A DNA stretch of 64,000 bases from an uncultured Armatimonadetes bacterium (GCA_963716175.1 OY970296.1:2528001-2592000), one strand, 5' to 3'; counted from the stretch's first letter, positions 1 to 28,181 are shown. Notes: generated by a model not told the origin, from the letters alone. Made by a program: numbers and translations.

Positions 1-558
1 GTGGAGGTGGCGCGGGGGCAGTCCCGGGGCCTGGTGCCCGTGGTCTTGTCCGAGGAGGGGGTGGTGGACATGATGAGCACTATCCGCCGCCTCGACGACC
101 CCCCCTGGATCGTGTTCATCCACGATTTCCAGGAGGCGTATGAGCAGAGCCCGGAAGGGCCTGAGGCGAAGGTCTTCATTGACCAGTCCGGCGAGCTGAG
201 CCACAACTGGCAGCTCGTGGGCTGGGTGGGAGAGCCCGGCCTGGACTATGCCGGGGCTCACTTCCGTCTGGTGCGCGCTGGCAGCGGCGTCCAGCTCTCC
301 CTGGACCGGGATGTTGGTGTGCCCATCGTCTACCTCGGCTTGGTGGTGACCGCGCTGGGCTCGCTCTTGATCCTCGGAGGCCCGCGCCGGAGCCTGGTGG
401 CTCTCGTCGCCCCGCGTGGTCGGGGCTCCCAGGTGCTGGTGGGTCTGTCCCGCTCCCGTCGGGGCGGGGATGGTGAGAGGTTGCTGGAGCAGCTGCAGTC
501 CGAACTTGGGGCCGCCTCGGAGGCGGGGCCGCCCCGGGAAGGTGAGGAGACCAAGTGA
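1..558 (+). CDS. resB: Cytochrome c biogenesis protein ResB/Ccs1, C-terminal part (5' truncated by window edge)
   Basis: Ends with a GVQLSLDRDVGVPIVYLGLVVTALGSLL transmembrane segment typical of the ResB C-terminus; lies near a CcsA/ResC gene. Confidence 0.7.
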   Translation: MEVARGQSRGLVPVVLSEEGVVDMMSTIRRLDDPPWIVFIHDFQEAYEQSPEGPEAKVFIDQSGELSHNWQLVGWVGEPGLDYAGAHFRLVRAGSGVQLSLDRDVGVPIVYLGLVVTALGSLLILGGPRRSLVALVAPRGRGSQVLVGLSRSRRGGDGERLLEQLQSELGAASEAGPPREGEETK

Positions 559-1544
559 GACGCCAAGCAAGCGAACGGCGGGTCGGCCTGCGCCGCAAGA
601 GCGTGGCCGGGCTGATCCTGGTGGCGGGGGTGGCACTCGCCCTCCTGGCCGGTCCGCCGGCCCGTGGGGGTGTTCCCGCGGGGGCCAGCTATCTGGGCTC
701 GAAGCTGTGCGTCGCCTGCCACCAGGCCACCCATCCGCAAGCGGTGGCCGGGTGGGCGACCTCGGCTCACGCTCACACCCTCTGGCCGATTGAGGAGTCT
801 GACGAGAGCCAGAAGGTGGTGGCCGACTTCGCCAAGAGCGCGTTTCCCAAGGAGCAGGCCGCCTACGTGGTGGGCGCGGGCAACCGCTATCAGGCCTTCC
901 TGGACAAGGATCTCAAAGTGCTCCCAGGCGAGTGGGCGGCCAAGAGCAAGAGCTGGCGGCCCCGCGAGGCGATGGACGCCAGGCAGGACTGCCTGGGCTG
1001 CCACACCACCGGCTATGACCCGGCCGCCGCCCACTGGGTGGAGCTGGACGTAGCCTGCGAGATGTGCCACGGTCCCGGTTCAGTGCACGCCGGCTCCGCC
1101 GACAAGAAGGAGACCATCGTCATGGTGCAGAGCCTCGACCCGGCGCACCAGGCCATGGTCTGCGGGCAATGCCACTCCCAGGGCCGGAGCAAGGACAGCA
1201 AGTATCCCTTCCCGGTCGGCTTCCGCCCCGGGGATGACCTCGACCAGTTCTTCACCTACACTGAGGAAATCCCCAGGGGCGCCATGAACTCGCAGTACAA
1301 CGAGCTTCGCTTCGGCGGGGGCAAGCACCTGGCCTCAGGCACGGTCTGCACCACCTGCCACGACCCCCACGGCTCGGGCGTGCCCAATGAGCTCCGTGCG
1401 CCCGTGAACCAGCTCTGTCAGAAATGCCACACCAAGCTCACGGGGTCCCAGCATAGCAAGGAGGCGCTTGCCGTGGTGACGTGTGCCGTGTGCCACATGC
1501 CCGGTGGCAAGCACACCTTCGTGCCGCCGAAAGGCCTGCCCTGA
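555..1544 (+). CDS. Secreted multiheme c-type cytochrome (7 CxxCH)
   Basis: Hydrophobic signal peptide; CVACH, CLGCH, CEMCH, CGQCH, CTTCH, CQKCH, CAVCH. Confidence 0.9.
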   Translation: MRRQASERRVGLRRKSVAGLILVAGVALALLAGPPARGGVPAGASYLGSKLCVACHQATHPQAVAGWATSAHAHTLWPIEESDESQKVVADFAKSAFPKEQAAYVVGAGNRYQAFLDKDLKVLPGEWAAKSKSWRPREAMDARQDCLGCHTTGYDPAAAHWVELDVACEMCHGPGSVHAGSADKKETIVMVQSLDPAHQAMVCGQCHSQGRSKDSKYPFPVGFRPGDDLDQFFTYTEEIPRGAMNSQYNELRFGGGKHLASGTVCTTCHDPHGSGVPNELRAPVNQLCQKCHTKLTGSQHSKEALAVVTCAVCHMPGGKHTFVPPKGLP

Positions 1545-1561
1545 GCGAAGCCGAAGGGATC

Positions 1562-1634
1562 GTAGGGCGGGATTCATCCCCCCATGCAGTAGGGCGGGTC
1601 CGCGACCTGCCCAAGAACAGGTCCGCGACCTGCC
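1562..1634 (+). repeat. Two GTAGGGCGGG REP-like heads plus a duplicated GGTCCGCGACCTGCC
   Basis: gtagggcggg at 1562 and 1589; ggtccgcgacctgcc at 1597 and 1620. Confidence 0.6.
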
Positions 1635-1649
1635 TAGGAGATTCATCTC

Positions 1650-2609
1650 ATGCTGCGAGCTGAAGAGCTGCTCGTGCAAGCCGCGCTCGGCCTCTACCTG
1701 GCCGCCTTCCTCGGCTACGTGCTAGGGCTTGCGATTGGCTGGAGGAAAGCGGGCAAGGCCGCCACGGCTCTCGCCTGGCTGGGTCTGGTCGCCCAGTCTG
1801 TCATGCTCGTGATGCGCGGCCTGAGCGCCCGGCACGTGCCTCTGGTGAGCATGTACGAATACCTCACCGCTTTCTCCTGGATGGTGGTGCTCGCCTACCT
1901 GGTGTTTCAGGTGTGGGCGGGGCGCGGACCTGCCCTACCGGCCGACAGGGGGGTGCAGGTGGCCACGTCGCCTGAGGCGGCCGCCACGGCGGCCGGAGGC
2001 CTGGCCGCGGCCGCGGTGCCGGCGCTGGCGCTGGCGGTGGGGCTGCTCGCCTACGCCTCCTCCCTTCCCTCCCACCTCAAGCAGGCCGAGAGTCTGATGC
2101 CGGTGCTCAGGAGCGATTGGCTGATCTTCCACGTCTCCGTGGCGGTGATCGGCTACGCCGCCGCCGCGCTCGCCAGCGCTTTGGCGTGCCTCTACTTCGT
2201 CAGCTACTACGGGCTGCGGGCGGGCCCGCAGAGAGGTTCCCCTACGAACTCCAGGAGCTCCCGCTGGATAAGAGATCGGTTGCCTGCCGCACCCCTGCTG
2301 GACGAATACGTCTACCGGGTGGTGCGCTTCGCTTTCCCCTTCCTCACCCTGGTGAATGTGACCGGCGCCATCTGGGCCAACAATGCCTGGGGGCGTTACT
2401 GGGGTTGGGACCCCAAGGAGACCTGGTCACTGATCACCTGGCTGATCTATGTCTTCTATCTTCACGCCCGCCTGCGCGCGGGCTGGCGGGCCCCGCAAAC
2501 CAATGCCGTCGTGGTGGTAGGCATCGGCGCCATCCTGTTCACCTTCCTCGGAGTTAACCAGCTTGCGGCCTTCTCGGACAGCCTGCACTCCTATGCCCCT
2601 GGCGGTTAG
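1650..2609 (+). CDS. ccsA: Cytochrome c biogenesis protein CcsA/ResC (System II heme lyase)
   Basis: WWD motif GAIWANNAWGRYWGWDPKETWSLITWLIY; C-terminal SLHSY; multiple TM helices. Confidence 0.95.
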   Translation: MLRAEELLVQAALGLYLAAFLGYVLGLAIGWRKAGKAATALAWLGLVAQSVMLVMRGLSARHVPLVSMYEYLTAFSWMVVLAYLVFQVWAGRGPALPADRGVQVATSPEAAATAAGGLAAAAVPALALAVGLLAYASSLPSHLKQAESLMPVLRSDWLIFHVSVAVIGYAAAALASALACLYFVSYYGLRAGPQRGSPTNSRSSRWIRDRLPAAPLLDEYVYRVVRFAFPFLTLVNVTGAIWANNAWGRYWGWDPKETWSLITWLIYVFYLHARLRAGWRAPQTNAVVVVGIGAILFTFLGVNQLAAFSDSLHSYAPGG

Positions 2610-2676
2610 CACCGGGAGGGGATCTCAGCACTCTCGCAACCGGGGTGGGCATAGGCGCCAATCCGCTACGCTTCTG

Positions 2677-2721
2677 CTCGCACTTCGCAGCGAGCGAGCT
2701 TCGCTACTACGCAGAGCAGCA
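2677..2721 (+). repeat. 45-nt dispersed palindromic element, copy 1 (others at 3058-3102 and 26070-26113)
   Basis: ctcgcacttcgcagcgagcgagcttcgctactacgcagagcagca aligns with the other two copies. Confidence 0.6.
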
Positions 2722-4521
2722 GTGGCAGCGGCCTGGTGGCTGGCGCTCCTCGCCCTCGCCCGTCCCGGCGGCGCCGCCGTCATCTCGCCTGCTGTGCTGC
2801 GGGACAACAGCTTCTGCCTGGGGTGCCATGGGCCGGGCTCGCACGCCAAGGGCGCCCCCAGAGTTGAGCTCGGCGGCCAGGTCCACCAGACTCTGACCTG
2901 CGTGGACTGCCACCAGGAGGTGCGCAGCGTGCCCCATCAGCCCGCTCCGGTGAAGGTGGACTGCGGCCGCTGCCACAGCGAGGCCGCCCAGGAGGAGCTG
3001 CTGCCGGCAAAGGTCAGGATCGCGCCCGCGCTCAGCACCCATGCCGCCGCCAAGCAGCTCGTGCTTCGTAGCGAAGGAGCTCCGCCACTTCGCAGAGTAG
3101 CAAGCGGAGCTATCGGCAAGCCCGCCACACGGCCGGCGGGCAAGCCGGCCTGCCGCGACTGCCACGGCGATCACGACCTGCGCGCCCCTTCCGATCCCAG
3201 TTCCCGGCTCGGGCGCGAACACGTCGTCAGCACCTGCGGCGCTTGTCATCCCCGGATCGCCGCCGAGTATCGGGAGAGCGTGCACGGGCAGGCGCTGCTC
3301 GCCGGCAATCCCGATGTGCCGGCCTGCGACAACTGCCACCCCGAGCACCCAGCGGCGCAGCGGCTCGGCATCTCCCAGAGGGGGGTAGTTGCCACCTGCG
3401 TCTCCTGTCACGAGGACCCGGGGCTCCAGCAGCGCTACGCCATCCCCGGCAACCGATTGGCTAGCTACCTGGGAAGCTATCACGGAGCCGCCACTCAGCT
3501 CGGCGATAGCAGGACCGCGAACTGCGCCAGCTGCCACACCGCCCACCACATACTCCCCTCCAGCGACCCCCGCTCCTCGGTCAACCCGGCCAACCTGCCC
3601 AAGACCTGCGGCCGCTGCCACCCGGGCGCCACCGCTCATTTCGCTGAGGGCAAAATCCACCTTCAGCCTTCACCCAGGCAAGACCGGCCCGTGTTCTACG
3701 TGAAGGTGGCCTACCAGTTGTTCATCGTGGGCTTGATGACGGCCTTCCTGGGCTATATCGGCCTCGACCTGGCGGCCCGCTTCCAGGGCAAGCTCGGCCG
3801 CGGGGAAGCCCACCGGCATAGCCGGGACGAGCCCCAGTTCCAGCGGCTGACCTTCAACCAGCGCCTCCAGCACTGGGCGCTCATTCTCAGCTTCATCACG
3901 CTCCTGCTCACCGGGCTCCCGCTGGCCTCGCCCAAGTCGGCGGTGGCCCAGGGGTTGATCACTTTCCTGGGGGGTATGGGCGTCCGGTCGGCGCTGCACC
4001 GCGCGGCTGCTATCTTGCTGATCGCCATCGTCGGCTATCACGCCGTCTACGTGCTCTTCTCCCGCAAGGGCTACTGGGAGTTCCGTCAACTTCTGCCGGG
4101 CGCCCACGATGGCCTCGATCTGGCCCAGATGCTGGGCTTCTACTTCGGCCTCACCCCCGTCCGCCCCCGGTTTGGCCGCTACAACTACATCGAGAAGTTC
4201 GAGTACCTGGCCGTGGGCTGGGGTTCGGTAGTCATGATCGCCAGCGGGGCCCTGCTCTGGTCGCCACAGGTCAGCCTGATCTTCTTTCCCAAGTGGGTGA
4301 TGGACATCGCGCTGATCGTGCATGGCTGGGAGGCGATCCTGGCCTTTCTGGCGATCATCATCTGGCATATGTACAATGTGCACTTCAACCCATCGGTCTT
4401 CCCCATGAGCAAGGTCTGGCTCACGGGGAAGGTGGGCCTGCGTGAGTTCCGGGAGAACCATCCTCTGGAGTACGAAGCCTATCTCCGCCAGCGGCCGCAG
4501 GCCGAGGGGGAGCAGCCATGA
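2722..4521 (+). CDS. Multiheme cytochrome c (9 CxxCH) fused to an FdnI-like cytochrome b membrane domain (CbcL-like quinol oxidase); start uncertain
   Basis: Nine CxxCH, then TM helices with RLQHW, LHR, RYNYIEKFEY, HGWEAILA and IWHMYNVH motifs; GTG at 2722 begins a signal-peptide-like stretch. Confidence 0.85.
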   Translation: MAAAWWLALLALARPGGAAVISPAVLRDNSFCLGCHGPGSHAKGAPRVELGGQVHQTLTCVDCHQEVRSVPHQPAPVKVDCGRCHSEAAQEELLPAKVRIAPALSTHAAAKQLVLRSEGAPPLRRVASGAIGKPATRPAGKPACRDCHGDHDLRAPSDPSSRLGREHVVSTCGACHPRIAAEYRESVHGQALLAGNPDVPACDNCHPEHPAAQRLGISQRGVVATCVSCHEDPGLQQRYAIPGNRLASYLGSYHGAATQLGDSRTANCASCHTAHHILPSSDPRSSVNPANLPKTCGRCHPGATAHFAEGKIHLQPSPRQDRPVFYVKVAYQLFIVGLMTAFLGYIGLDLAARFQGKLGRGEAHRHSRDEPQFQRLTFNQRLQHWALILSFITLLLTGLPLASPKSAVAQGLITFLGGMGVRSALHRAAAILLIAIVGYHAVYVLFSRKGYWEFRQLLPGAHDGLDLAQMLGFYFGLTPVRPRFGRYNYIEKFEYLAVGWGSVVMIASGALLWSPQVSLIFFPKWVMDIALIVHGWEAILAFLAIIIWHMYNVHFNPSVFPMSKVWLTGKVGLREFRENHPLEYEAYLRQRPQAEGEQP

Positions 4522-6545
4522 ACCGCCTCAAGCTCTGCCTGCCCTTCGCGCCCCTCCTGAGACGGGTCCGGCTGCCCTTCGTCCGAAGGCGAGTGCCAGT
4601 GTGGGCGCTGGTCGTGATCGCCATTGTGGTGCTGGTGCCAGTCACCGGCGGAGCCATGGTCGCCACCAGCCAGCCCATCTTCTGCAAGTCCTGCCACGAG
4701 ATGAGTTTGCACTACGCCACCTGGAGCCAGTCGGCGCACCGGGACGTGAGCTGCGAGGAATGCCACGTCATGCCCGGCACCGCCAACATGTTCAAGAGCA
4801 AGATCAGGGCTCTCCGGTTGGTGAAGGCGCATGCCGCGGGCGATGTCAAGGCCACCGCCATCCAGGGGCATGTCCCGGATGCCAACTGCAAGCGGTGTCA
4901 CCCCCAGACGCCTGAGCTCGTGACCTATCACGGCCTGAAGATCACGCACCGGGACCATTGGAACATGGGGGTCAAGTGCACCTTCTGTCACGACCGGGTG
5001 GTGCATGGACCCAAGTGGCTCTATACCGGGGTCACCTCCTCCGAGAAGATCAAGGTGGTCTCCACTCCCTACAAGTTCACCCCGCAGATGGAGACCTGCT
5101 ACAAGTGTCACGACGGTAAGCGCGCCTCCAACAAGTGCTCCACCTGCCACGTCACCCTGGGTGAGCGTAAGCCCACCGCCTTCGACCCGGCCTGGGTGGA
5201 GGCCCATCGGGATGAAGTGCGCCGCACCGGGAAACAGGACTGCGAGCGCTGTCATCTGCCCTCCTTTTGCGACGCCTGCCACCGCGCGGCCAATCCCCAT
5301 CCCGGTGACTGGATCGCCCGCCACCCCCAGGAGGCGCGCAGGGATACCGCCGGCTGCTCCTCCTGCCATCTCGCCCCAGGGGAGCAGCGCCCCAAGCAGG
5401 TGAGGGATATGGCCTTCTGCCGGGCTTGCCATGGGCTGCGGCAGGAGCATCGCCAGGCCGACTGGCAGGTGATCCACGGCCGGGAGTCGCTCGCCAACCC
5501 GGCCTCTTGCCAGCGCTGCCACACCCAGAGCTGGTGCTCAGACTGCCATGCCATCAGCCGCCCGCACCCGCAGGAGTGGCTGGCGCGGCACCCCGCGGAG
5601 GCCAACCGCAACCCGGAGAGCTGCCGCGTCTGCCACACTCAGCAGTTCTGCGACGCTTGCCATCACGGCAAGCAGGGCATTCCCGCCTCCCATCAGCAGG
5701 ACTGGCTCACCCGCCACAAGGACGCCGCCCGCCAGGGCCAGGAGACCTGCGCCGTCTGTCATAAGACTGGCTTCTGCCAGAGCTGTCACGCCAAGCAGGC
5801 ACCCACCAGTCACGGCCCCCAATGGCTGAGCCAGCATGGCCCGGCGAGCAGAGCCCAGCCTGCCTCCTGCCTGCTCTGCCACAAAGAACAGCACTGCAAC
5901 CAGTGTCATGGCCTGACTATGCCCCATCCGAAGCTGTGGCTGGCCTCCCATCACAAGGCCGCCGCGCAGAACGAGGCCCTGTGCGAGCGCTGCCATCAGA
6001 AGCAGGCCTGCGACAGCTGTCACCGGGGCGCCTTCCCGGCCTCCCATCAGCCCTCGGACTGGATGAGCCGCCACGGCGCGGAGACGAAGAAGCCCGCCGC
6101 GCAGTGCAGCCTCTGTCACCGCCGGGAGTTCTGCTCCTCCTGTCACGGCGTAGCCATGCCGCATCCCTCCGGATGGAGAGGTCCGCCCCACGGCGCCGCC
6201 GCGCAGAAGGAGCAGACGGTCTGCCTGCGCTGCCATCAGGAGAGCCAGTGCGCCAAGTGCCACGGCCTGGCCATGCCGCATCCGAGCAATTGGATGACCG
6301 AGCATGGGAAGAAGGCGACAGCTTCCCCTGCCCTATGTGGCACTTGCCATGGGCCCGGTCGTCATGACTGCGCCACCTGCCACACTGCCCTGGCCCCATC
6401 CAGCCACCAGCAGGAGAACTGGCGGCAGCAGCACGGCCAAGCAGGAGCGGCCTCCACCGCGCTCTGCTCGCTCTGCCACGGGAAGAATGCTTGCGCTGAT
6501 TGCCACGCGCGGCAGGCCGGGAGGGGCGCCGCAAAGGGCAGTTAG
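4518..6545 (+). CDS. Membrane-anchored NapC/NirT-type multiheme cytochrome with 28 CxxCH and 11 tandem diheme repeats
   Basis: N-terminal TM helix, then TSQPIFCKSCHEM...WSQSAHRDVSCEECH (NapC/NrfH-like); 28 CxxCH counted by eye. Confidence 0.9.
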   Translation: MNRLKLCLPFAPLLRRVRLPFVRRRVPVWALVVIAIVVLVPVTGGAMVATSQPIFCKSCHEMSLHYATWSQSAHRDVSCEECHVMPGTANMFKSKIRALRLVKAHAAGDVKATAIQGHVPDANCKRCHPQTPELVTYHGLKITHRDHWNMGVKCTFCHDRVVHGPKWLYTGVTSSEKIKVVSTPYKFTPQMETCYKCHDGKRASNKCSTCHVTLGERKPTAFDPAWVEAHRDEVRRTGKQDCERCHLPSFCDACHRAANPHPGDWIARHPQEARRDTAGCSSCHLAPGEQRPKQVRDMAFCRACHGLRQEHRQADWQVIHGRESLANPASCQRCHTQSWCSDCHAISRPHPQEWLARHPAEANRNPESCRVCHTQQFCDACHHGKQGIPASHQQDWLTRHKDAARQGQETCAVCHKTGFCQSCHAKQAPTSHGPQWLSQHGPASRAQPASCLLCHKEQHCNQCHGLTMPHPKLWLASHHKAAAQNEALCERCHQKQACDSCHRGAFPASHQPSDWMSRHGAETKKPAAQCSLCHRREFCSSCHGVAMPHPSGWRGPPHGAAAQKEQTVCLRCHQESQCAKCHGLAMPHPSNWMTEHGKKATASPALCGTCHGPGRHDCATCHTALAPSSHQQENWRQQHGQAGAASTALCSLCHGKNACADCHARQAGRGAAKGS

Positions 6546-6720
6546 CTCCCGCGCCGCGGGTGAGGGCCGAATCGCCCAAGACCGCGACGCCCAGAGCAGG
6601 GAACGCGCCGCCAGGCGGACAACCGCGGGGAACGAAGGGACCTTCGTCCAGATGCTGATCGGAAGCTCCAGGGGGGAGGGGGAGCCAGAGGAGGCGCCAG
6701 GCCAGGGATCGGACGCGAGC

Positions 6721-7194
6721 ATGGCCTCGGTCAGCCGCCGGCGGTTTCTCAGCTATCTCAGCGGCTTGCTCACTGGGTTGATCGCGGTGGCCTTGGGCCT
6801 GCCCCTGGTCCGCTTCTACGTGGGCAACGCGTTCCAGCAGAGAGCGGCGCGGTGGCTCAAGCTGGGGCCGAGGGCGGAGGTGCCAATAGGCCGCCCCACG
6901 CTGTTCCGTCTCAGCTATGTGGAGCAGGAGGGGTGGCGGGACACTACCCGGCGGGAAGAGGTCTACGCGGTTACCCAGGATGGGCGGAACTACCTGGTGC
7001 TCTCGAACATCTGCACCCATCTGGGCTGCCCGGTGCGGTGGGATGACAGAGTTCGAGCTTACCTCTGCCCGTGCCACGGCGGTATGTTCGCCGCGGATGG
7101 CCGGGTGCTGAAGGGGCCACCCCCGAGGCCTCTTCTCCGCTTGCCGCACAAGTTCGAGGGCGGCGTTCTCTATGTCCGGGTCGGGGGAGGCTGA
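6721..7194 (+). CDS. qcrA: Rieske [2Fe-2S] subunit of a Rieske/cytochrome b complex
   Basis: Tat-like SRRRFL plus TM anchor; CTHLGC and CPCHGG boxes; GPPPRPL. Confidence 0.93.
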   Translation: MASVSRRRFLSYLSGLLTGLIAVALGLPLVRFYVGNAFQQRAARWLKLGPRAEVPIGRPTLFRLSYVEQEGWRDTTRREEVYAVTQDGRNYLVLSNICTHLGCPVRWDDRVRAYLCPCHGGMFAADGRVLKGPPPRPLLRLPHKFEGGVLYVRVGGG

Positions 7195-7196
7195 CC

Positions 7197-9310
7197 GTGT
7201 TTCGCAGGCTGCTCCGGTGGGTTGACGAGCAGACCGAACTGGTCAGCCTACTCCGCCAGTTCATGGAGGAACCGCTCGCGCGGGGCGTGGGTTGGCCCCA
7301 CGTTTTCGGCGGCGCCGCTCTCTTCCTCTTCATCGTGCAGGCCTGCACCGGCGTGCTGCTGGCGGTCTACTATGTGCCTTCGCCCGTGGCCGCCTACCAG
7401 TCCACCTCCTACCTCAGCATGTCCGTTCCCCTGGGCAGCGTGGTGCGCAGCCTCCACCACTGGGGGGCAAGCGCCATGCTGGTGGTGGTGTTCGTGCACA
7501 TGCTGCAAGCCTTCTTCTGGGGCGCTTACAAGCGGCCTCGCCAGATCGTCTGGGTGATCGGTGTGTTCCTGCTCCTGGCCACCCTGGGGCTCAGCTTCAC
7601 CGGATATCTCCTTCCCTGGGATCAGAAGGCCTACTGGGCCACCGTCGTGGGCACCCGCATCGCCGGCAGCCTGCCGGTGGTGGGAACCTACATCACCACC
7701 CTCATCCGGGGCGGCCCCAGTGTGGGGGCGCTCACTATCACCCGGTTCTTCGGCCTGCACGTCTTGATCTTCCCCGCGCTGCTCATCGCACTGATCGCGT
7801 TCCACATCTCACAGGTGCGCATGAAGGGCATCACCGCGCCCTGGCGCCGAGTGGGTGACGAAGACGCCGTGCCCCACCCCGGGCTCTTCTACCCCGACCA
7901 GGTGTTCAAGGATGTAGTGGCGGCCCTGCTGCTCTTGGCCCTGCTTTTCGCCATTGCCGTCCGCTATCCGGCGCCGCTGGAAGCCATCGCCAACCCCACC
8001 AGCACCGGCTATGTGCCTCGCCCCGAGTGGTACTTCCTGCCCAACTTCCAGCTTCTCAAGTACTTCCCCGCGGCCTGGGGCGAGTGGGGTGAGTTCTCCG
8101 GCGCCATCCTCATCCCGGCCCTGGTAGTGCTGCTGCTCATCTTGTTGCCGTACCTGGACTACAATCCCAATCGGCGGCCCCGCCGTCGTCCTTTCGTCAC
8201 CGCTGCCGCGCTGGCCAGCCTCTTCGGCCTCAGCTATCTGGGCGTCGAAGGCGCGAAGAGTGGGCCCAGACCGGTGACTCTCACCGCGACGCAGGCGCGG
8301 GGCGAGAAGGTGTTCCTGGACCTGCGCTGTCAGTCATGCCATGGCATCAACGGCGGCGGCGGCATGGAGGGAGTGGATCTTGCCCAGGGCGGGCCCCGGG
8401 ACCCCCGGAAGGTGGCCGAGAAGCTGCGCTTCCCCACCAGGTCCAACCCCCGTTCGGTCATGCCCCCGGTGCCCAGCAGCCTCAGCCCGGCCGGCTTCGA
8501 TGCCTTGGTGGCCTTCGCCTCGGCCATTGACACTCGCTTCCAGATGCCGACGGTGGCCCCGGTTGGGCCCACCAAGCCCCTCTCTCACTATGAGGAGAAC
8601 TGGTTCGCCAACCACAAGTACGAGGTGCGCAAGGATCCCACCGTCTGCGCCCAGTGCCATCAGCCCAGCTTCTGTCAGAGCTGCCATCGCAATCGCAGAC
8701 CCGATTCGCACCTGCATCGCTGGCTCGAGTTCCATGCTGGGACCGCGCGCGAGCAGCCCGAGTACTGCCAGGTCTGTCACGAGAAGAGCTTCTGCAACGC
8801 CTGCCACAGCAAGCTGATGCACACCTCCGACTGGCTGCACCGGCATGACGAGGCCGGAAGGACACAGTACGAATGTGCCTGCAGTGCCATCAGGAAGGCG
8901 AATGTACCTCCTGCCACCGGGGCGCGACGCCGGTCAGCCACGCCCGCAAAGACTGGGTACACTCTCACCAAGGGGCAAAGGCGGCGGAATGCCGGACCTG
9001 CCATCGCGAGAGCTTCTGTATCACCTGCCATGAGGGAGCCAGGCCCAGGTCGCACGATGCCAGCTGGCTTTCTCGCCATGGCGCGGCCGCCAAAGCGCAG
9101 CCAGCGGGATGCCGCACCTGCCACGCGGCCAGCTTCTGCAGCAGCTGCCATGGAGGTGTGACCATGCCCCATCCGGCTAACTGGGTGATCGCGCACAGGG
9201 TACAGGCGAGCTTTGCCCCCGGCTCAGTCTGCTATCGCTGTCACCAGTACAAGCAGGACTGCGCCAAGTGCCACGGAGAATGGCCGCCTGAGCCGGGCGC
9301 CGGTGGGTGA
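7197..9310 (+). CDS. qcrB: Cytochrome b(6) + subunit IV fused to a monoheme c domain and six diheme repeats (13 CxxCH); frameshift near 8870
   Basis: RSLHHWGAS, TGYLLPWDQKAYWA and PEWY motifs; 5 CxxCH before the shift and 8 in ORF 8873-9310, which continues the same repeat register. Confidence 0.88.
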
Positions 9311-9361: not shown

Positions 9362-10549
9362 ATGATCGGTTTCACGAAACTGCTCTGCGGGAAGGCCACG
9401 GTGTCCCGCGCCCTGCGCCAGGCCGCGGGTGGGCTACAACGAGACCCGGCCTTACTGCAGTTCACTACTGCTCACCGTCCCCTCGTGGTCTGGAACACGA
9501 CCGCCCGCTGCAATCTCCGGTGCGCTCACTGCTACAACGATGCCGGGCCTCAGGCCAGCGGCGAACTCAGCACCGCGGAGGCCGAGGGCCTGATTGATGA
9601 TCTGGCGCAGATGGAAGTCCCGGTGCTTCTGTTCTCCGGCGGCGAGCCCGTGCTCAGGGATGACATCTTGCATCTCGCCGCCTACGCCTTTGATCGCGGA
9701 CTGCGCCCTGTGCTTTCCACCAACGGGACGCTGATTGACGCCGAGGTGGCGCAGGCGCTCGCCCGGGCCCGCCTCCAGTACATCGGGGTTTCGATTGACG
9801 GCCTGCCGGACACCCACGATCGCTTCCGCTGCCAGGAAGGGGCCTGCGCCGCGGCTTGGCAGGGGGTTCGCAGCGCCCGCGACGCGGGCCTGCGGACTGG
9901 CGTCCGCTTCACCGTCACGCGCGAGAACGTGGATGAGCTGCCCGGCGTTCTTGACCAGGCCGTCTCGGAAGGGGTAAACCGCTTCTGCCTCTACCACCTG
10001 GTCTACTGCGGGCGCGGCGCCGCGCTCGCCGACCGCGATCTCTCCCCGGCGCGCCGCCGCGAAATGATCCAGTGGCTGGTGCGCAGAACCGAGGAGCTTC
10101 ACCATCAGGGCCGCGAGATCGAGATCCTGACCACCGACCAGCATGCGGACGGCGTCTTCCTCTATCGCCTGATCGCGCAGCGCGATCCCAACCGGGCGGC
10201 CGAGGTGCTAGAGCTGCTGGGCATGCACGGCGGGTGCTCGGCCGGCACGAAGTTCGCCAACATTGATGCTCAGGGCAATGTGCACCCCTGCCAGTTCTGG
10301 GGGCACGAAGCCGTCGGCAATGTGCGCGAGCGCCCTTTCTCTCGCATCTGGCGAGACCCCGATCAACCTGTGCTCTGCGGACTGCGAGAGCTGCAGCAGC
10401 AGCTGCGAGGCCGCTGTCGGGAATGCGCCTACCGGCATTACTGCGGAGGCTGTCGCATCCGCGCCCAGGCCGTCAGCGGCGACCTCTGGGGCCCCGACCC
10501 GGCCTGCTATCTGAGCGATGAAGAGATAGCCGCCGAGGCGGTGTCGTAG
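9362..10549 (+). CDS. ahbC: Radical SAM/SPASM protein, AhbC/NirJ1-type 12,18-didecarboxysiroheme deacetylase
   Basis: MIGFTKLLCG N-terminus; VVWNTTARCNLRCAHCY; YHLVYCGRG; SPASM cysteines; next to ahbAB. Confidence 0.85.
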   Translation: MIGFTKLLCGKATVSRALRQAAGGLQRDPALLQFTTAHRPLVVWNTTARCNLRCAHCYNDAGPQASGELSTAEAEGLIDDLAQMEVPVLLFSGGEPVLRDDILHLAAYAFDRGLRPVLSTNGTLIDAEVAQALARARLQYIGVSIDGLPDTHDRFRCQEGACAAAWQGVRSARDAGLRTGVRFTVTRENVDELPGVLDQAVSEGVNRFCLYHLVYCGRGAALADRDLSPARRREMIQWLVRRTEELHHQGREIEILTTDQHADGVFLYRLIAQRDPNRAAEVLELLGMHGGCSAGTKFANIDAQGNVHPCQFWGHEAVGNVRERPFSRIWRDPDQPVLCGLRELQQQLRGRCRECAYRHYCGGCRIRAQAVSGDLWGPDPACYLSDEEIAAEAVS

Positions 10550-11575
10550 ATGGAGGGAGCGCCGGACCTGGCCCCGGAAGACAAGGCCCTCCTCACGCTT
10601 GCCCAGGCCTCCTTTCCCTTGGTGCAGAGGCCCTTCGCCGCGCTTGCCGGCAAGGTGGGTCTGAGCGAGGAAGCCGTGATCGCCCGGATGACCGCGCTGA
10701 AGGCATCGGGCCTGATTCGCAAGATCGGCCCCGTGTTCGAGCCCGCGCGGCTCGGCCTCACGACTGAGCTGGTGGCGGTGGAAGTGGCGCCGCCAGACCT
10801 GGAGACGGCCGGGGCCGCGGTGGCGGCCTGGCCTCCGGTGACGCATTGCTACGCCCGCGAGCACCGCGTCAACCTCTGGTTCACTGGCGCCGCATCCGGG
10901 GAGGCCTGGTTTGCGTGCGCCGCGGCTCGTGCCGCCGCCCTTCCCGGGGTGTGCGGCGTATGGCGGCTCCCGGCGGTGCGGCGCTTCAAGATCGCGGTCC
11001 ACTTCGACCTGATGGCCGGTCCCGATCCCCCCGCGGGTCGGACTTGCCCTTCACCGTCCGAGACGCCCGCACCGCCTCCGCCCCGGTGGTCTGGCTCCGA
11101 TCTCTCGCTGCTGCGAGCGGTGGAGGCCGATCTGCCTCTATGCCCCGAGCCCTTTGCTGCGCTCGCCTCCTCTCTCGCCATGGCGCCCGAGGACCTCCTG
11201 GGGAACTTGCGCCAGTGGGTGGCCGATGGTCGCATCCGGCGCTATGGCGCATTGGTGAACCACCGGCGCCTCGGGTTCGTCGCCAATGCGATGACCGTCT
11301 GGTCGGTGCCAGATGACCGTCTGGAGACGGTCGGGCGGTGTCTCGCGACCTCGCCCTCCGTCTCCCACTGCTACCAGCGTCCGGCCTTCCCGGATTTCCC
11401 TCACAACCTCTATGCGATGGTGCACGCTCAATCCCGGGCCAGGTGTCTCGACTTGATCCGGGAGCTTTCCCGCAAGTGCGGAGCGGGCGATCCCGTCCCG
11501 CTCTTCTCCACCAGGGAGTTCAAGAAGGCCGCCCCTCGCTACTCCGAGCTGCTTACCTCCGGCCCGTTGCTGTAG
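10550..11575 (+). CDS. ahbAB: Siroheme decarboxylase, fused AhbA-AhbB (NirDL/NirGH-like)
   Basis: Two Lrp/AsnC-like halves: FPLVQRPF...VTHCYAR...NLWFT and LPLCPEPF...VSHCYQRP...NLYAMVH...REFKK. Confidence 0.88.
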   Translation: MEGAPDLAPEDKALLTLAQASFPLVQRPFAALAGKVGLSEEAVIARMTALKASGLIRKIGPVFEPARLGLTTELVAVEVAPPDLETAGAAVAAWPPVTHCYAREHRVNLWFTGAASGEAWFACAAARAAALPGVCGVWRLPAVRRFKIAVHFDLMAGPDPPAGRTCPSPSETPAPPPPRWSGSDLSLLRAVEADLPLCPEPFAALASSLAMAPEDLLGNLRQWVADGRIRRYGALVNHRRLGFVANAMTVWSVPDDRLETVGRCLATSPSVSHCYQRPAFPDFPHNLYAMVHAQSRARCLDLIRELSRKCGAGDPVPLFSTREFKKAAPRYSELLTSGPLL

Positions 11576-12298: not shown

Positions 12299-13468
12299 GT
12301 GGAGCAAGTCTACTTCGACCATGCCGCTACCACCCCGCCTCGACCTGAAGTCATCCAGGCTATGCTGCCTTACCTTGCCGACAAGTGGGGTAACCCCTCC
12401 AGCCTGCACGTGACGGGCGTTCGCGCGCTCGAAGGCATGGAGCGAGCGCGCGAACACGTTTCAGCGCTGTTGGGCGCCCAGCCTGACGAGATCGTGTTCA
12501 CCGGCAGCGGCACCGAGGCCGATAACCACGCCCTGATCGGCGTCAGCCGCGCCCTGCGGGATAGAGGCGACCACATCATCACTTCTGCCGTCGAGCACCA
12601 TGCCGTTCTTCACACCGCCGTTTTCCTCCAGGAGTGCGGCGTACAGGTCACCCTCCTGCCAGTAGACGGGTCGGGCATGGTTGACCCCGGGGATGTGGCG
12701 GCGGCGATCACGGATCGCACCATTCTTGTCTCCATCATGCATGCCAATAACGAAGTGGGCACGGTTCAGCCTATCGCTGAGATCGGCGCCATCTGCCGGG
12801 AGCGAGATGTGCTCTTTCACAGCGATGCCGTCCAGACCGTCGGCCATCTCCCATTGGGGGTGAGAGAAACCCACGTGGATCTGCTCTCCTTGTCTGCCCA
12901 CAAGCTCTATGGGCCCAAGGGCGTGGGCGCGCTGTACGTGCGGCAGGGCACGCGGTTACGCTCCTACCTGCACGGAGGAGGTCAGGAGCGAGGCCGGCGG
13001 GCCAGCACCGAGAACGTGCCGGGCATCATCGGCCTGGGCGAAGCTGCGCGGCTGGCGCGCGAGGATATGACGTGGGAGATTGGCCACAACACTGAGCTTC
13101 GTTCCCTGCTGATCCATGGTGTGTGCGAGCAAGTGACGGATGTCGTCGTGACCGGTCATCCGGACTGCCGGCTGCCGAACAACGCCAGTTTCTGCTTCGC
13201 TGGTGTGGAAGGCGAGTCTATCCTCCTCAACCTCGATCTTGAGGGGTTCGCGGTCTCCTCCGGTTCGGCCTGCACCTCCGGCGCGCTTGAACCATTCCAC
13301 GTGCTGCTGGCAATGGGAATCCCGCATGAGATTGCTCGCGGTTCTGTGCGCGTCAGCGTGGGCCGCGACAGCACCGTGGAACAGGTGCAGCGATTCCTCG
13401 AAGTCCTCCCTCGGGTCGTGGCGCGATTGCGCGGCATGTCCCCGATTGCTCCGGCCGTTTCCCGGTGA
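12299..13468 (+). CDS. nifS: Cysteine desulfurase (NifS/IscS type)
   Basis: YFDHAATTP, SAHKLYGPKG (PLP Lys), SSGSACTS. Confidence 0.95.
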   Translation: MEQVYFDHAATTPPRPEVIQAMLPYLADKWGNPSSLHVTGVRALEGMERAREHVSALLGAQPDEIVFTGSGTEADNHALIGVSRALRDRGDHIITSAVEHHAVLHTAVFLQECGVQVTLLPVDGSGMVDPGDVAAAITDRTILVSIMHANNEVGTVQPIAEIGAICRERDVLFHSDAVQTVGHLPLGVRETHVDLLSLSAHKLYGPKGVGALYVRQGTRLRSYLHGGGQERGRRASTENVPGIIGLGEAARLAREDMTWEIGHNTELRSLLIHGVCEQVTDVVVTGHPDCRLPNNASFCFAGVEGESILLNLDLEGFAVSSGSACTSGALEPFHVLLAMGIPHEIARGSVRVSVGRDSTVEQVQRFLEVLPRVVARLRGMSPIAPAVSR

Positions 13469-13475
13469 AGATAGC

Positions 13476-13712
13476 ATGACGGCCCCTGAGCCCGACGCGA
13501 CCATTGACCTGCGAGGCACCCCCTGTCCCCTGAACTGGGTGAAGACGAAGCTGAGGTTGGAGCGGATGCAGCCGGGTCAGGTGCTGGAGGTGGTCGTGGA
13601 CGATGGCGCCCCTGCCCGAAACGTCCCGCGCAGTGTCGAGGCCGAGGGGCATCGGGTGTTGGCCATGACCAACGGCGCTGGGCGAGTCCGCATCTTGATC
13701 CAACGGCAATGA
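13476..13712 (+). CDS. tusA: TusA/SirA family sulfurtransferase
   Basis: IDLRGTPCPLNWVKTKL...GQVLEVVVDD. Confidence 0.88.
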   Translation: MTAPEPDATIDLRGTPCPLNWVKTKLRLERMQPGQVLEVVVDDGAPARNVPRSVEAEGHRVLAMTNGAGRVRILIQRQ

Positions 13713-13892
13713 CCCTGGAGGGGAGGCGCGGCTTTGGTTGACGGCGATGACTGTCCTTACCCGAGAGCTGAGAGACTGCTACAGTCGGCGCATCCAGGCG
13801 AACGGACTCGGGGGCGGCGGCCAGCCTGGACGCCTGGCCGCCGCCAGAGGCTAGGGGCACTCCCGCCCCAGATGCTGAGCTAGGGCCGATCC

Positions 13893-14879
13893 TTGTCATA
13901 CCCCGTCTTACTGGTGGTCTTTGCAGCCTTCGGCCTCGCCTACGGCCTCGTGCTCCAGCGCAGCCGCTTCTGCTTCGCCCGCGCCGCGTACGAGCTATTC
14001 CTGCTGCGCAGCCGCGATGCGCTCGACGGCGTGATGGCCGCGCTCCTCATCACCACCCTTGGGTTCGGCGCCGTCACCCTGGGCCTTCTCCATCGTGGCC
14101 TCCGGGCCGAAAGCCACCTCCTGATACTCCCGGTTGGCCCCGGAATTGCTCTCGGCGCGTTCGCCTTCGGTCTGGGCATGGCTCTCGTCGGCATGTGCGC
14201 CTCTGGCACGCTCCAGCGGATGGGGGAGGGCTATGCCATCGCCTGGCTGTCATTGGCCGGGATCATCGCTGGCGCCGCCCTGGATCCAGGCCGCGGTGGG
14301 GCCACGGCCTGGCTCAGCCATCCAGGCTACGCGCTCTCGCTGGGCCAGTGGACCAGTCCAGCCGCCGGGTTCCTGCTGACTCTCTCGGCGCTGGCCCTGA
14401 TCTGGGTGGCGCTCACGCGCCGCAGAAGCTCCCGCAGGGCGGAATCTCTCGCTGCGCCTGTCATTGGGGGCGCGCTGCTGGGCCTGCTGAACACTGCTCA
14501 GCTTGCCCTGGCGTCGCCGTGGACGGTCGGCTATCCCCTCGCCCTGGTTCCCTCCCTGTGGTCGCGGCACGCATCAGGGACCGATGTCCGCGGCGCTTTG
14601 CCGCTTCTGGTGCTGGACACCTGCATGGTGGCTGGGGCCCTGGTCGCGGCCGCCGCCCAGGGCGGGCTGCGCCTGCGCTGGCCTCGGCGATTCGGCGAAG
14701 CCTTCCGGGCGCTGGCCGGCGGGGTGCTGATGGGCTTCGGCATCAAGCTCGCGCACGGCTGCAATGTGGGTGGCATCCTCAGCGCCCTCCCTTCGCTCTC
14801 CCTCAGCGCCTGGCTCTATCTTCCCTCCATGCTGCTCGGGGCCTGGTTCGGGGTCAAGCTGATCTCGAAGTGGAGCTAG
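13893..14879 (+). CDS. YeeE/YedE family sulfur compound (thiosulfate) transporter
   Basis: LQRSRFCF, GMCASG and GCNVGG motifs; many TM helices. Confidence 0.88.
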   Translation: MSYPVLLVVFAAFGLAYGLVLQRSRFCFARAAYELFLLRSRDALDGVMAALLITTLGFGAVTLGLLHRGLRAESHLLILPVGPGIALGAFAFGLGMALVGMCASGTLQRMGEGYAIAWLSLAGIIAGAALDPGRGGATAWLSHPGYALSLGQWTSPAAGFLLTLSALALIWVALTRRRSSRRAESLAAPVIGGALLGLLNTAQLALASPWTVGYPLALVPSLWSRHASGTDVRGALPLLVLDTCMVAGALVAAAAQGGLRLRWPRRFGEAFRALAGGVLMGFGIKLAHGCNVGGILSALPSLSLSAWLYLPSMLLGAWFGVKLISKWS

Positions 14880-14884
14880 CGCCC

Positions 14885-14956
14885 GCCGTGGCAGGCGCAT
14901 TTCATGCGAGGGCGTGGTGCGGCCAGCCAGCAGGTAGGTTATGAAATGCGCTCTAG
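14885..14956. repeat. 72-nt dispersed repeat (70/72 identical to 49804-49875) with an internal inverted repeat, ending in CTAG
   Basis: Direct comparison; gcgcatttcat...atgaaatgcgc. Confidence 0.85.
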
Positions 14957-15029
14957 CCGCATGCCCGCCCTACAGGGCTTCGCGGCCGCGCTGGAGGAAA
15001 GCGCCTCAGCACCCAGAAGCTCAAGCTCG

Positions 15030-16145
15030 ATGAAACCTCGCAGGGATCAAGGGTTCGCACGCCGGGATTTCCTGAAGGCCGCCGCGGCCGCCGCGTTGGC
15101 GGTGGCCTTCGCCCCGGCCTGTGGGACTGGCGCAGCGCAGAAGGAGAAGAGAGTGGCCGCTCAGAGTTCGCTGCCGCGGTGGCGCGGGTTCAACCTGCTG
15201 GAGATGTTCACCACGCAGAGTGACGGCAACTGGCAGGAGGATGACTTCCGCTGGATGCGGGACTGGGGTTTCGACTTCGTGCGCCTGCCGCTCTGCTACA
15301 CGCTGTGGATAGAGGGTGACGATGTCTACCAGCTCCACGAACCGGGTCTGGCGAAGGTGGACCGGGCGGTAGAGCTGGGCCGCAAGCACGGCGTTCATGT
15401 GAACATCGCCTTCCATCGGGGCCCGGGCTATAGCGTCAACGAGGAGCGGAAGGAGCCCTTCAACCTGTGGAAGGATCAGGAGGCGCTCGATGCTTTCTGC
15501 TTCCACTGGCAAGCTTTCGCCCAGCGCTACAAGGGCATTCCCTCCTCCCAGGTCACCTTCAACCTGATCAACGAGCCCGCGGCGCCAGTGGCCGAGATGA
15601 CGCGGGAGGACCACAAGCGCGTGGTCAAGACCGCCACCGAGACCATTCGCAGGGTGGATCCCGATCGGCTGGTGATCGCGGATGGGGTGGAGTGGGCGAG
15701 TGTGCCGTGCCCGGAGCTGGCCGACGTGAAGGTGGCGCAGAGCTGCCGCGCCTACACGCCTCACACGCTGAGCCACTATCGAGCGGAATGGGTGGACTCT
15801 CAGGGCTGGCCTCTTCCGAAATGGCCTGGCCAGCCGGAGGAGGATAGGATCTGGGACCGCAAGGCGCTGGAGGAGCACTACCGGCCCTGGGCGGATCTGG
15901 CGCGGCAGGGCATCGGTGTGCACTGCGGGGAGGGAGGCGCCTACAACAAGACTCCGCATCCGGTGGTGCTGGCCTGGCTGCGGGATGTGATGGAGATCCT
16001 GAAGGGGCACAACATCGGCTACGCCCTCTGGAACTTCCGCGGCTCCTTCGGCATCCTCGACTCCGAGCGCGGCGATGTCAGCTACGAAGACTTCCACGGC
16101 CATCAGCTAGACCGGAAGCTGCTCGCCCTTCTGCAGGAGTGCTAG
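15030..16145 (+). CDS. Tat-exported glycoside hydrolase family 5
   Basis: RRDFLK Tat motif; RGFNL, DFVRLP, FNLINEP (acid/base), CGEGG (nucleophile). Confidence 0.88.
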   Translation: MKPRRDQGFARRDFLKAAAAAALAVAFAPACGTGAAQKEKRVAAQSSLPRWRGFNLLEMFTTQSDGNWQEDDFRWMRDWGFDFVRLPLCYTLWIEGDDVYQLHEPGLAKVDRAVELGRKHGVHVNIAFHRGPGYSVNEERKEPFNLWKDQEALDAFCFHWQAFAQRYKGIPSSQVTFNLINEPAAPVAEMTREDHKRVVKTATETIRRVDPDRLVIADGVEWASVPCPELADVKVAQSCRAYTPHTLSHYRAEWVDSQGWPLPKWPGQPEEDRIWDRKALEEHYRPWADLARQGIGVHCGEGGAYNKTPHPVVLAWLRDVMEILKGHNIGYALWNFRGSFGILDSERGDVSYEDFHGHQLDRKLLALLQEC

Positions 16146-16155
16146 CGGCAACGAG

Positions 16156-18085: not shown

Positions 18086-18091
18086 GTCGCT

Positions 18092-18138
18092 TGTAGGGCG
18101 GGTATGCCCCGAAGCCGCAGTGAAGGGGCATGCCCGCC
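18092..18138. repeat. GTAG-type REP element between convergent genes
   Basis: tgtagggcgggtatgcccc...ggggcatgcccgcc. Confidence 0.7.
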
Positions 18139-18186
18139 GCTCTCGTTGGGCAGGATCCTCCCTCCTGCCCCTCCCAGATCGCCGAC

Positions 18187-19167: not shown

Positions 19168-19241
19168 GCTCTTCTCCTTCCGCTCGCAGTGGTTGCCGCT
19201 GTTCTTGTCCGACCTCCCCCCCTATCCCTGCCTACGGCTGG

Positions 19242-19285
19242 GCTGGAAAGAGGACGGAGTCCGCCTGCCGCGGACTCCGTCCTTT
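19242..19285 (-). terminator. GC-rich hairpin downstream of DUF1559 copy 1
   Basis: aggacggagtccgc...gcggactccgtcct, followed by a short U tract on the minus strand. Confidence 0.55.
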
Positions 19286-19317
19286 GCATCAGGTCACGAA
19301 TACGCTGAGGCAGGACG

Positions 19318-20331: not shown

Positions 20332-20762
20332 CTGGTCTCTCCTCACGTCACCGCATATCACTGCCTTGACACAGCTTGCACACCAACGTTGACCTGAGAT
20401 GACTACTAGGTAAGTGCTGTTCCATCACCTCCTTTCCAGTTCCCTCCCGGGCCGTCCCCAGGCAGTGGATGCCCAACCCTGTCTCCGCCGCAGCCGGCCT
20501 CGCCTCAGCCGGCCGAGGCAACTGCGCGGATAGCCGGTTGACTGGCTGAAGCTGAGAGAAGGGCAGGGGACGGCACTACCTGCCGCAAGGCCAGCGGAAG
20601 AGCTCCGGGCGCGGCCTGGCGGCCGCGCGGCGGACCACGGCCACGCCGCCCCTGTGGGCCCGCTGGCATCCCACAGTGCTGCACGCCTACTTACCCGGCC
20701 GTGACTCCCCACGCGCGCCTCCCTCGGGGGCACAGCCCTGCGGCCCAGTCTCGACCATGGCC

Positions 20763-20830
20763 AGTATAGCCCGGAGAAGAGGCCGCGTCATTGGACAAAC
20801 TTGTGGAATTCTTGTAGATTCTTACGGAGA
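20763..20830 (-). promoter_or_regulatory. Promoter (-10 TATACT) with conserved putative AraC-type operator block, copy 1
   Basis: agtata at 20763; block gcgtcattggacaaacttg..gaa.ttcttgtagatt.ctacggaga shared with 22461-22506. Confidence 0.6.
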
Positions 20831-22506: not shown

Positions 22507-22518
22507 AGAGCCATAAGA

Positions 22519-28180: not shown

Positions 28181-28181
28181 C

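Follow-up and report, generated by a model that had tools for sequence, protein, structure and literature searches.

A 40-residue dihaem repeat unit carried by two putative quinol-oxidising cytochromes in an uncultured Armatimonadetes bacterium

We analysed a stretch of 64,000 nucleotides of DNA from an uncultured Armatimonadetes bacterium (GCA_963716175.1 OY970296.1:2528001-2592000), hereafter the window, in which a cytochrome gene cluster occupies positions 546-9310 of the plus strand; all genes and features given below up to position 11575 lie on this strand. The multihaem open reading frames (ORFs) of the cluster carry 7, 9, 28 and 5+8 CxxCH motifs, and every CxxCH-bearing ORF of the window falls within 546-9307, except one ORF with a single motif. 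Our subject is a short dihaem unit, with the consensus H-x3/4-W-x3-H-x~10-CxxCH-x4-CxxCH, that is repeated in two of these genes. The first encodes a 28-haem membrane-anchored cytochrome of 675 residues, P0001 (4518-6545), and the second a fusion of cytochrome b6, subunit IV, a monohaem cytochrome c and dihaem units, which starts at 7197 and is preceded by the gene of a Rieske 2Fe-2S subunit. An initial annotation of the window had counted eleven units behind a NapC-like head in the former and six behind the cytochrome b/c domains in the latter, and had quoted an example from each; we found both examples, as units A5 and B5 of the numbering used here.

The translation of P0001 contains 28 CxxCH motifs, four in a head (residues 56-158) and 24 as 12 successive pairs. 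The head (residues 1-158, 4518-4991) starts with the only transmembrane helix of the protein, at residues 30-48 (4605-4661; hydropathy 2.64 over 19 residues; helix 28-50 in the AlphaFold2 model), followed by CxxCH motifs at residues 56, 79, 124 and 154. A single N-terminal helix and then four CxxCH motifs is the layout of the NapC/NirT/NrfH group, and PF03264 (NapC/NirT) matches residues 31-163 with 37.8 bits against a cut-off of 24.1. Among the solved chains of the PDB, phmmer aligned the NrfH chain 2j7a_C with residues 33-140 (E 9.4e-8), and with Foldseek the P0001 model matched the same chain with a target-normalised TM-score of 0.64 and a probability of 1.00. CxxCHxM at the first haem is a feature of NrfH. 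The first haem motif of P0001 (residues 56-62) is likewise CxxCHxM and aligns with that of 2j7a_C, and its M62 is invariant in 66/66 aligned sequences. This alignment consists of P0001 and 65 of the best 120 matches listed from a homologue search in which 8000 candidates were scored and 292 reached E<=1e-3; the partial P0036 and the shorter or more distant P0072-P0125 were left out. Among the matches listed, the closest homologue of P0001 is 77% identical, and the named relatives are mostly metagenome-assembled genomes (MAGs) of Armatimonadota. The NrfH equivalog model TIGR03153 scores 52 bits on P0001, below its cut-off of 134.2, and no NrfA gene was found near P0001 in our Pfam scans, which covered P0001-P0005 and 16 of the larger flanking ORFs in window 1-26036. 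Therefore, we regard the head as NrfH-like, and not as NrfH.

Between the head and the regular units lies a degenerate haem pair, A0 (residues 159-211, 4992-5150), which goes beyond the earlier count. A0 keeps the H-x3-W element and has a long spacer and a CxxCH-x8-CxxCH pair; its H163, G164, C194-H198 and C207-H211 are invariant in the 66-sequence alignment. Behind it, the eleven proposed units are all recognisable as A1-A11 (residues 212-663, 5151-6506; 22 haem sites), both from the alignment of the units with each other and from the repeating helices of the AlphaFold2 model. They are 44, 50, 39, 38, 42, 40, 38, 41, 39, 40 and 41 residues long, i.e. 38-50 residues. The strict pattern H-x2-5-W-x3-H-x6-16-CxxCH-x3-6-CxxCH describes 8 of the 11, and the deviant ones are A1, with F for the first His, A2, with a 16-residue insert between its CxxCH motifs, and A9, with W-x4-H.

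The Rieske 2Fe-2S subunit is encoded at 6653-7194, with its start at 6653 or 6721, and has a twin-arginine signal (SRRRFL) and a PF00355 match of 39.9 bits against a cut-off of 20.3. The cytochrome b fusion begins at GTG 7197, preceded by a ribosome-binding site, GGGGGAGG, at 7182-7189, and its first frame runs over 7197-8872. PF00033 (151.5 bits), PF00032 (40.7 bits) and PF00034 (24.8 bits) all match above their cut-offs. A single chain thus laid out encodes cytochrome b6, subunit IV with a loop that we take to be the PEWY motif, the monohaem c, whose CxxCH is at residue 420 of P0002, and six dihaem units (B1-B6, 8556-9274), with 13 CxxCH motifs in total. The cytochrome b part has six strong hydrophobic helices and a weaker seventh (residues 373-390, by eye), and the PEWY loop stands between the fifth and the sixth. 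The helix topology predicted in this way puts the c-type tail on the outer face, in agreement with the known topology of b6/subunit IV. We also noticed by eye that the N-terminus of the cytochrome b part (window 7071-7400) reads F-G-G at the site where b6-type cytochromes have the CxGG motif for haem c_n (PMC5600118; here and below, papers are cited for the available portions of their texts). Haem c_n may be absent from this fusion.

All six units B1-B6 are present behind the cytochrome b/c domains, as annotated; however, they are not encoded as one uninterrupted array, since the frame is broken inside B3. Frame 0 (7071/7197-8872) holds B1, B2 and the H-x3-W-x3-H half of B3 (8556-8872, from motif reading and alignment with relatives), breaks at about 8872-8875 and then turns into nonsense. 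The tail resumes in another frame (8876-9310), which supplies the CxxCH-x4-CxxCH half of B3, units B4-B6 and the stop codon, with 8 CxxCH motifs; these residual 144 codons (8876-9307) are out of frame with the cytochrome b part. Comparison with relatives places the break in the spacer of B3 (8870-8876), where two relatives have 10 residues from His to Cys and the window has 9 and a broken codon. This is consistent with one base missing or two extra bases. A programmed frameshift was considered and rejected. The orthologue at locus L017, a 59%-identical relative, is an intact ORF of 707 residues, and the fusion of locus L001, on a closed MAG chromosome, is broken elsewhere, where the cytochrome b part gives way to the c part. 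Since these relatives do not share the break, it is not a conserved recoding signal; it may be a sequencing or assembly error or a real inactivating mutation.

Next, we compared the units with each other. In an alignment of 16 units (A1-A11 and the B units, with B3 omitted), the Trp, the second His and both CxxCH motifs are invariant, and the first His is present in 15/16. The initial annotation had held that nearly every unit supplies two extra His for its two haems, and the alignments bear this out: beyond these counts, both extra His of A2-A10 are invariant or at least 90% conserved across the 66 homologues. The composition of the repeat regions agrees with this as well, with 47 His and 6 Met for 22 haems in P0001 and 27 His and 2 Met for 12 haems in the cytochrome b tail. 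From this surplus of His and the scarcity of Met it follows that bis-His ligation is possible for every haem, and that His/Met ligation is not general. The repeats spend 2.27-2.33 kDa, or 20.5-20.8 residues, of peptide per haem (A1-A11: 2.27 kDa, 20.5 residues).

Chance as the origin of the repeat is excluded. In 2000 shuffles of P0001, we obtained at most 3 CxxCH motifs (mean 0.43) against the 28 observed, and at most 1 tight pair against 10; shuffling of the cytochrome b tail gave at most 3 CxxCH motifs against 12. At the DNA level no tandem repeat was detected, and the only matches, of at most 35 nucleotides at 63-94% identity, are centred on Cys and His codons. Since neither a DNA-level tandem repeat nor a long shared stretch exists, the units are old and diverged. 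Outside the invariant columns, units resemble each other no more in one protein than across the two (mean identity 18.8% in A, 20.3% in B, 19.4% for A against B), and the cross-protein pairs A8/B5 and A9/B6 share 47% and 37%. A recent duplication or gene conversion between the two genes was rejected on the same grounds, i.e. no DNA tandem repeat and only short, imperfect matches. By eye, two subtypes of the unit can be told apart, with either 'M-P-H-P' or 'S-H' preceding the Trp.

We searched Pfam, NCBIfam and solved structures for a match to an already characterised repeat cytochrome family. It is very unlikely, in our judgement, that the tails are just ordinary members of the cytochrome c7, c3 or doubled-CXXCH families and the unit a by-product of the density of haem motifs. 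Such a view can point to matches over the whole of P0001, with Cytochrome_C7 (PF14522; 70.5 bits against a cut-off of 24.8), MtrC/MtrF domain II/IV (61.8 bits) and Cytochrom_c3_2 (25.7 bits), and to the nearest ESM Atlas clusters, which are generically named multihaem families only. However, the PF14522 match contains 0 individually significant stretches and is a generic multihaem signal that does not define the unit. PF09699 scores 17.1 bits on P0001, below its cut-off of 20.6 and with no significant stretch, and on single units it reaches E<=1 in 3/16 only (best 0.0043). TIGR04257 gave no match on P0001 at E<=0.01, and the magnetochrome model PF18509 matched 1/16 units, with E 0.64. Furthermore, the conserved H-x3-W-x3-H half of the unit lies outside all those models.

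Solved structures gave the same picture. Searched against the PDB, the unit profile returned 72 matches at E<=10; 6f0k_A headed them at 5e-4, and none had a single stretch below E 1.7. In the same database, phmmer with P0001 returned only NrfH and a marginal flavocytochrome c3. The AlphaFold2 model of P0001, built from the 66-sequence alignment, has a mean pLDDT (predicted local distance difference test) of 74.4 and a pTM (predicted template modelling score) of 0.44, and a three-helix pattern recurs in it with each unit. The tail ORF 8873-9307, modelled from a 24-sequence alignment, reached a mean pLDDT of 77.0 and a pTM of 0.53. A low pTM together with fair local confidence is as an elongated repeat protein would give, a weak pointer towards such a shape. 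With Foldseek, the full P0001 model had 22 matches at E<=10, none of which reached E<=0.001; the first three were NrfH, and the remainder were unrelated helical-repeat (solenoid) proteins and weak multihaem matches. The model of the 145-residue tail had 0 matches at E<=10. Thus neither phmmer nor the unit profile nor Foldseek found a solved structure for the repeats, and no Pfam or NCBIfam model or solved structure captures the unit.

We then followed the number of units among relatives. In the 66-sequence alignment, the NrfH-type head is followed by enough pairs to give 24-32 haems in total. The pattern of the window, 4 + 12x2 haems, is found in 41/66 sequences. A11 is absent from 12/66, and an extra unit stands at A9 in 8/66, five of which also have an extra C-terminal unit; with the one sequence in which it occurs alone, the extra C-terminal unit is present in 6/66. 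The remaining patterns, each in 1/66, are the absence of A3, the absence of A9 together with A11, a unit-length deletion across A5/A6, and a total of 25 motifs. Hence, as read from these alignments, the changes in haem number are almost always of whole units. The same holds for the cytochrome b fusion: its tail in L001, whose 28-haem gene is 67% identical, is longer by exactly one unit, of 37 residues. CxxCH counts of this fusion are 12 in P0111, 13 in P0104, P0110, L017 and the window, 15 in L001 and P0163, and 17 in P0088 and P0147. Its intact relatives are 697-810 residues long and encode b6, subunit IV, the monohaem c and the array as one polypeptide. The variation in copy number that the initial annotation expected from a profile search is therefore real, with 24-32 haems on the NrfH-type head and 12-17 on cytochrome b.

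These numbers also bear on whether the proteins are built for distance. They could instead be electron stores (capacitors), which would keep charge while an acceptor is lacking, or a compact membrane redox buffer, with a compact or ring-like fold. On one anchored chain, 28 low-spin haems could hold 28 electrons, repeats of ~40 residues can close into rings, and no terminal partner was found in the window. We consider this improbable nevertheless. The spread of haem numbers in the 66 NrfH-type homologues is narrow (24-32, 41 of them with 28), and 2.3 kDa per haem leaves little peptide to bury a three-dimensional cluster. In peptide-minimised cytochromes, haem number is linear with length and ~27 haems span the periplasm of ~200 Å (PMC7096707); the counts observed here lie near this number and fit distance better than storage.

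To see how widely the unit occurs, and on which partners, we ran the 16-unit profile over 1.84 billion representative proteins. At E<=1e-3 there were 2659 matching clusters, of which 1325 passed E<=1e-10 and 106 passed E<=1e-30; the best 150 matches carry 4-31 matched stretches each. Among 138 proteins that had not been seen before, 72 have at least three strict units. As partners in these 72, Pfam identifies NapC/NirT heads in 11, cytochromes of the b/b6 type and N-terminal cytochromes b561 in 2 each, and a monohaem c alone in 3; 54/72 show generic multihaem families or no Pfam match. Three quinol-oxidising scaffolds therefore bear the unit, i.e. NapC/NirT, cytochrome b/b6 and cytochrome b561; the proposal that it is grafted onto different quinol oxidases holds for the two scaffolds first named and extends to a third. 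Stand-alone arrays were considered as free wires and set aside, since the examples inspected (P0137, P0149, P0208 and P0242) resemble fragments of genes of the two fusion types. Several short arrays being evidently fragments, the low end of the copy-number range is unreliable.

In a scan of genomes, 278 stretches matched, 160 were confirmed and 79 loci were kept. The wire gene is abutted by a b561-type ORF in 15/18 of the closest loci (L001-L018), as it is in the window. A Rieske/cytochrome b gene directly follows it in 3/18 only (L001, L002 and L017); L007, L013 and L018 have this gene at another place of the locus. In distant loci titled Actinomycetota, Coriobacteriia or Thermoleophilia, we found head-bearing ORFs with 5-18 CxxCH motifs, often in tandem.

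Taken together, the reading that we prefer, with a probability of roughly 0.6, is that the two genes encode membrane-bound quinol:cytochrome c oxidoreductases that are extended, at the ends facing the periplasm, by tandem dihaem modules as peptide-minimised electron conduits. Each module would carry two c-type haems on its CxxCH-x4-CxxCH pair, with maturation by the operon's ResB/CcsA-type system, and its H-x3/4-W-x3-H helix would most likely donate the two distal His, so that all the repeat haems would be low-spin and bis-His. In the first protein, the NrfH-type head with its CxxCHxM haem would oxidise menaquinol and pass the electrons to the 24 further haems; in the second, they would travel from the Rieske/cytochrome b6-subunit IV core to the fused monohaem c and on to 12 further haems. 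The repeat haems would form one continuous, extended chain in which electrons flow outward. The tails would thus act as fixed conduits from the cytoplasmic membrane towards a distant acceptor, and not as diffusing carriers, and their length would shift by gain or loss of whole units. By the length rule of PMC7096707, we estimate that the 28-haem chain would measure about 200 Å and the 13-haem chain about 100 Å.

Several points weigh against this reading. The ligation of the repeat haems by the His of H-x3-W-x3-H is inferred from conservation and stoichiometry. Haems with bis-His ligation are usually of low potential, and a bis-His chain behind a Rieske centre sits oddly unless the whole chain is menaquinol-adapted. 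Owing to the frame break, the second wire is perhaps not made in this genome. With adjacency in 3/18 close loci, the pairing of the two wires is not conserved. Many of the stand-alone arrays in the database are fragment-like, which inflates the range of copy numbers. Finally, we identified no partner in the outer membrane or outside the cell within the window, which begins inside the operon.

A more specific form of the preferred reading is possible, although we hold it only tentatively. In this form, the 28-haem protein would be a hard-wired molecular ruler, a single polypeptide that would oxidise menaquinol and carry the electrons across the whole periplasm, as far as the outer envelope, without a diffusible carrier. 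Its number of units would be selected for the width of the envelope, and the unit would serve three unrelated quinol oxidases as a general cassette for added length. If true, this would explain both the 28-haem mode in Armatimonadota (41/66) and the 5-18 haems in the loci titled Actinomycetota, Coriobacteriia and Thermoleophilia.

Direction of flow is a separate matter, on which the rest of the window has some bearing. A Wood-Ljungdahl gene set lies at 30564-46900 and comprises a NuoF-like flavoprotein, a CO dehydrogenase (CODH) of the prismane family, formate-tetrahydrofolate (THF) ligase, FolD, MTHFR, the beta and delta subunits of acetyl-CoA synthase (ACS)/CODH and the RACo activator; genes of CooC-like ATPases are located just upstream (27419-28946). 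This set suggests an acetogen-like or acetate-oxidising anaerobic lifestyle. The host is likely an anaerobe, because the window contains the Wood-Ljungdahl enzymes as well as radical-SAM (S-adenosylmethionine) and sirohaem-decarboxylase genes.

With such a host, the wires might run inward and bring electrons from outside, with Fe(II), a mineral or a partner cell as the donor, to the quinone pool, for CO2 fixation by the Wood-Ljungdahl route. The CODH/ACS, formate-THF ligase, FolD, MTHFR and RACo genes at about 33-47 kb would suit this, multihaem chains are reversible in principle, and iron oxidisers have periplasmic cytochromes with 21-24 haems (PMC7096707). On the other hand, NrfH/NapC heads and Rieske/cytochrome b cores are known above all for oxidising quinol, as with ImcH and CbcL (PMC12307469), and quinol-level electrons cannot reduce CO2 without a further input of energy. 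Nothing in the sequence sets the direction, and we think inward flow unlikely; outward flow from the quinol-oxidising heads to a distant acceptor is, we infer, the simplest reading.

The remaining genes of the operon were assigned by Pfam. Upstream of P0001, a seven-CxxCH cytochrome (555-1544; Pfam, CxxCH count) and a CcsA-type cytochrome c assembly protein (1650-2609) are followed by P0005 (2563-4521; start codon uncertain), in which a nine-CxxCH cytochrome c domain is fused to a cytochrome b561/FdnI-type membrane domain. It matches PF01292 (44.7 bits), PF14522, PF09699 (31 bits) and TIGR01583 (E 7e-14), and its stop codon overlaps the ATG of P0001 (ATGA, 4518-4521). P0005 is the third quinol-linked cytochrome of the cluster and has no dihaem unit; its layout resembles that of Geobacter CbcL. 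At L017, the cytochrome c and b561 halves of the P0005-type protein are separate ORFs. The operon therefore combines three distinct quinol-linked cytochromes (NrfH-like, nine-haem cytochrome b561 and Rieske/cytochrome b) with genes for cytochrome c maturation (ResB/CcsA-type) and haem synthesis. The latter are a radical-SAM/SPASM protein (9362-10549) and an NirD/L-type sirohaem decarboxylase (10550-11575), which we take to be candidates for the sirohaem-dependent route of haem synthesis. At L017, genes of sirohaem synthase and porphobilinogen deaminase are also present (12829-17958), so that haem synthesis stands beside an operon with 57 CxxCH motifs. The head of the same orthologous operon (L017 14-2713) encodes a protein of 899 residues with nine CxxCH motifs, three doubled-CXXCH domains and a large non-haem part, which by these features is a candidate distal or surface partner.

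We also compared the two proteins with known systems. The dodecahaem cytochrome GSU1996 of Geobacter sulfurreducens (3ov0) has been described as a natural nanowire; it is a soluble protein and is not known to be fused to any quinol oxidase. Like P0001, it strings haem modules in tandem along a single polypeptide with little peptide per haem, and both belong to the Pfam Cytochrome_C7 clan. However, the unit of GSU1996 is a c7-type trihaem domain (TIGR04257), in contrast to the 40-residue dihaem unit. A Foldseek comparison of 3ov0 with P0001 gave E 8.3 and a target-normalised TM-score of 0.18, and the unit profile matched 3ov0 with a whole-sequence E of 0.003, with no significant stretch and with long inserts between the CxxCH motifs. 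Magnetochrome (PF18509), with ~20 residues per haem and the distal His shortly upstream of CxxCH, is also a very small haem unit, whereas the unit described here is a fixed pair with a conserved Trp.

The head of P0001 resembles NrfH, CymA and ImcH, which share with it the single N-terminal helix, the four-haem head and the CxxCHxM motif of haem 1. Those proteins have 4 haems and hand their electrons to soluble carriers or NrfA, whereas P0001 has 24 more haems fused to the head; ImcH holds 7 haems. ImcH is a NapC/NirT-like menaquinol oxidase that feeds extracellular electron transfer (PMC12307469). For the second protein, the nearest likeness is with Geobacter CbcL and CbcBA and with the Rieske/cytochrome b complexes of anammox bacteria, which also join a b-type membrane core to multihaem cytochrome c; unlike in these, the b6, subunit IV, monohaem c and 12-haem array of dihaem units form one polypeptide in the intact relatives. 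In Geobacter, ImcH, CbcL and CbcBA serve different redox windows in one organism (PMC12307469, PMC7096707), and the three different cores of the present operon recall this set of several quinol oxidases. Long cytochromes for which a bridging role between the two membranes has been proposed include those with 21-24 haems in the periplasm of iron oxidisers (PMC7096707) and a predicted 27-haem nanowire of Desulfuromonadia (PMC11492766). They share with the 28-haem protein a haem number near ~27 and a peptide-minimised build; going by their published descriptions only, they are periplasmic or extracellular, whereas P0001 is anchored in the membrane through its own quinol-oxidising head.

The principle of modular haem wires is thus already established. 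Modular multihaem cytochromes, single-chain nanowires and fusions to quinol dehydrogenases are in print (PMC7096707, PMC9250108, PMC11492766), and a 2026 preprint on peat cytochromes, in its available portion, reports modular architectures with doubled-CXXCH and quinol-oxidoreductase domains. What is new here is the unit. We found no description of the 40-residue dihaem unit, of the 28-haem NrfH fusion or of the b6-IV-c-dodecahaem chain in the open full-text literature, subscription journals being outside the search. At ~2.3 kDa per haem, the unit is among the most economical natural building blocks of haem wires, and more than a thousand protein clusters, spread over several phyla, contain it. 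The ~20-nm crossing from the cytoplasmic membrane to the cell surface is usually ascribed to small, diffusing cytochromes; an anchored chain with almost exactly the haem number predicted for bridging offers a concrete and testable alternative.

Cultured Armatimonadota are known as aerobic heterotrophs. The operon, together with the Wood-Ljungdahl set, suggests that anaerobic members of this phylum that encode the pathway transfer electrons out of the cell or over long distances. Anaerobic Armatimonadota bearing this pathway have been described (PMC10290634), and the available portion of that account makes no mention of these cytochromes.

Outside the cytochrome cluster and the Wood-Ljungdahl set, several long ORFs (585-947 residues) at 46886-63261 had no Pfam match at E<=1e-5. 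The region 14904-26036 encodes cellulase-family proteins of GH5 and GH9 and a membrane protein with DUF6785. It also encodes two proteins of the prepilin-type N-methylation/DUF1559 kind, which is typical of genomes of Armatimonadota and Planctomycetota. The cumulative GC skew has its minimum (-0.37) at 24000-26000, where the sign of the skew changes from negative to positive; this could be a replication origin or a strand-switch region.

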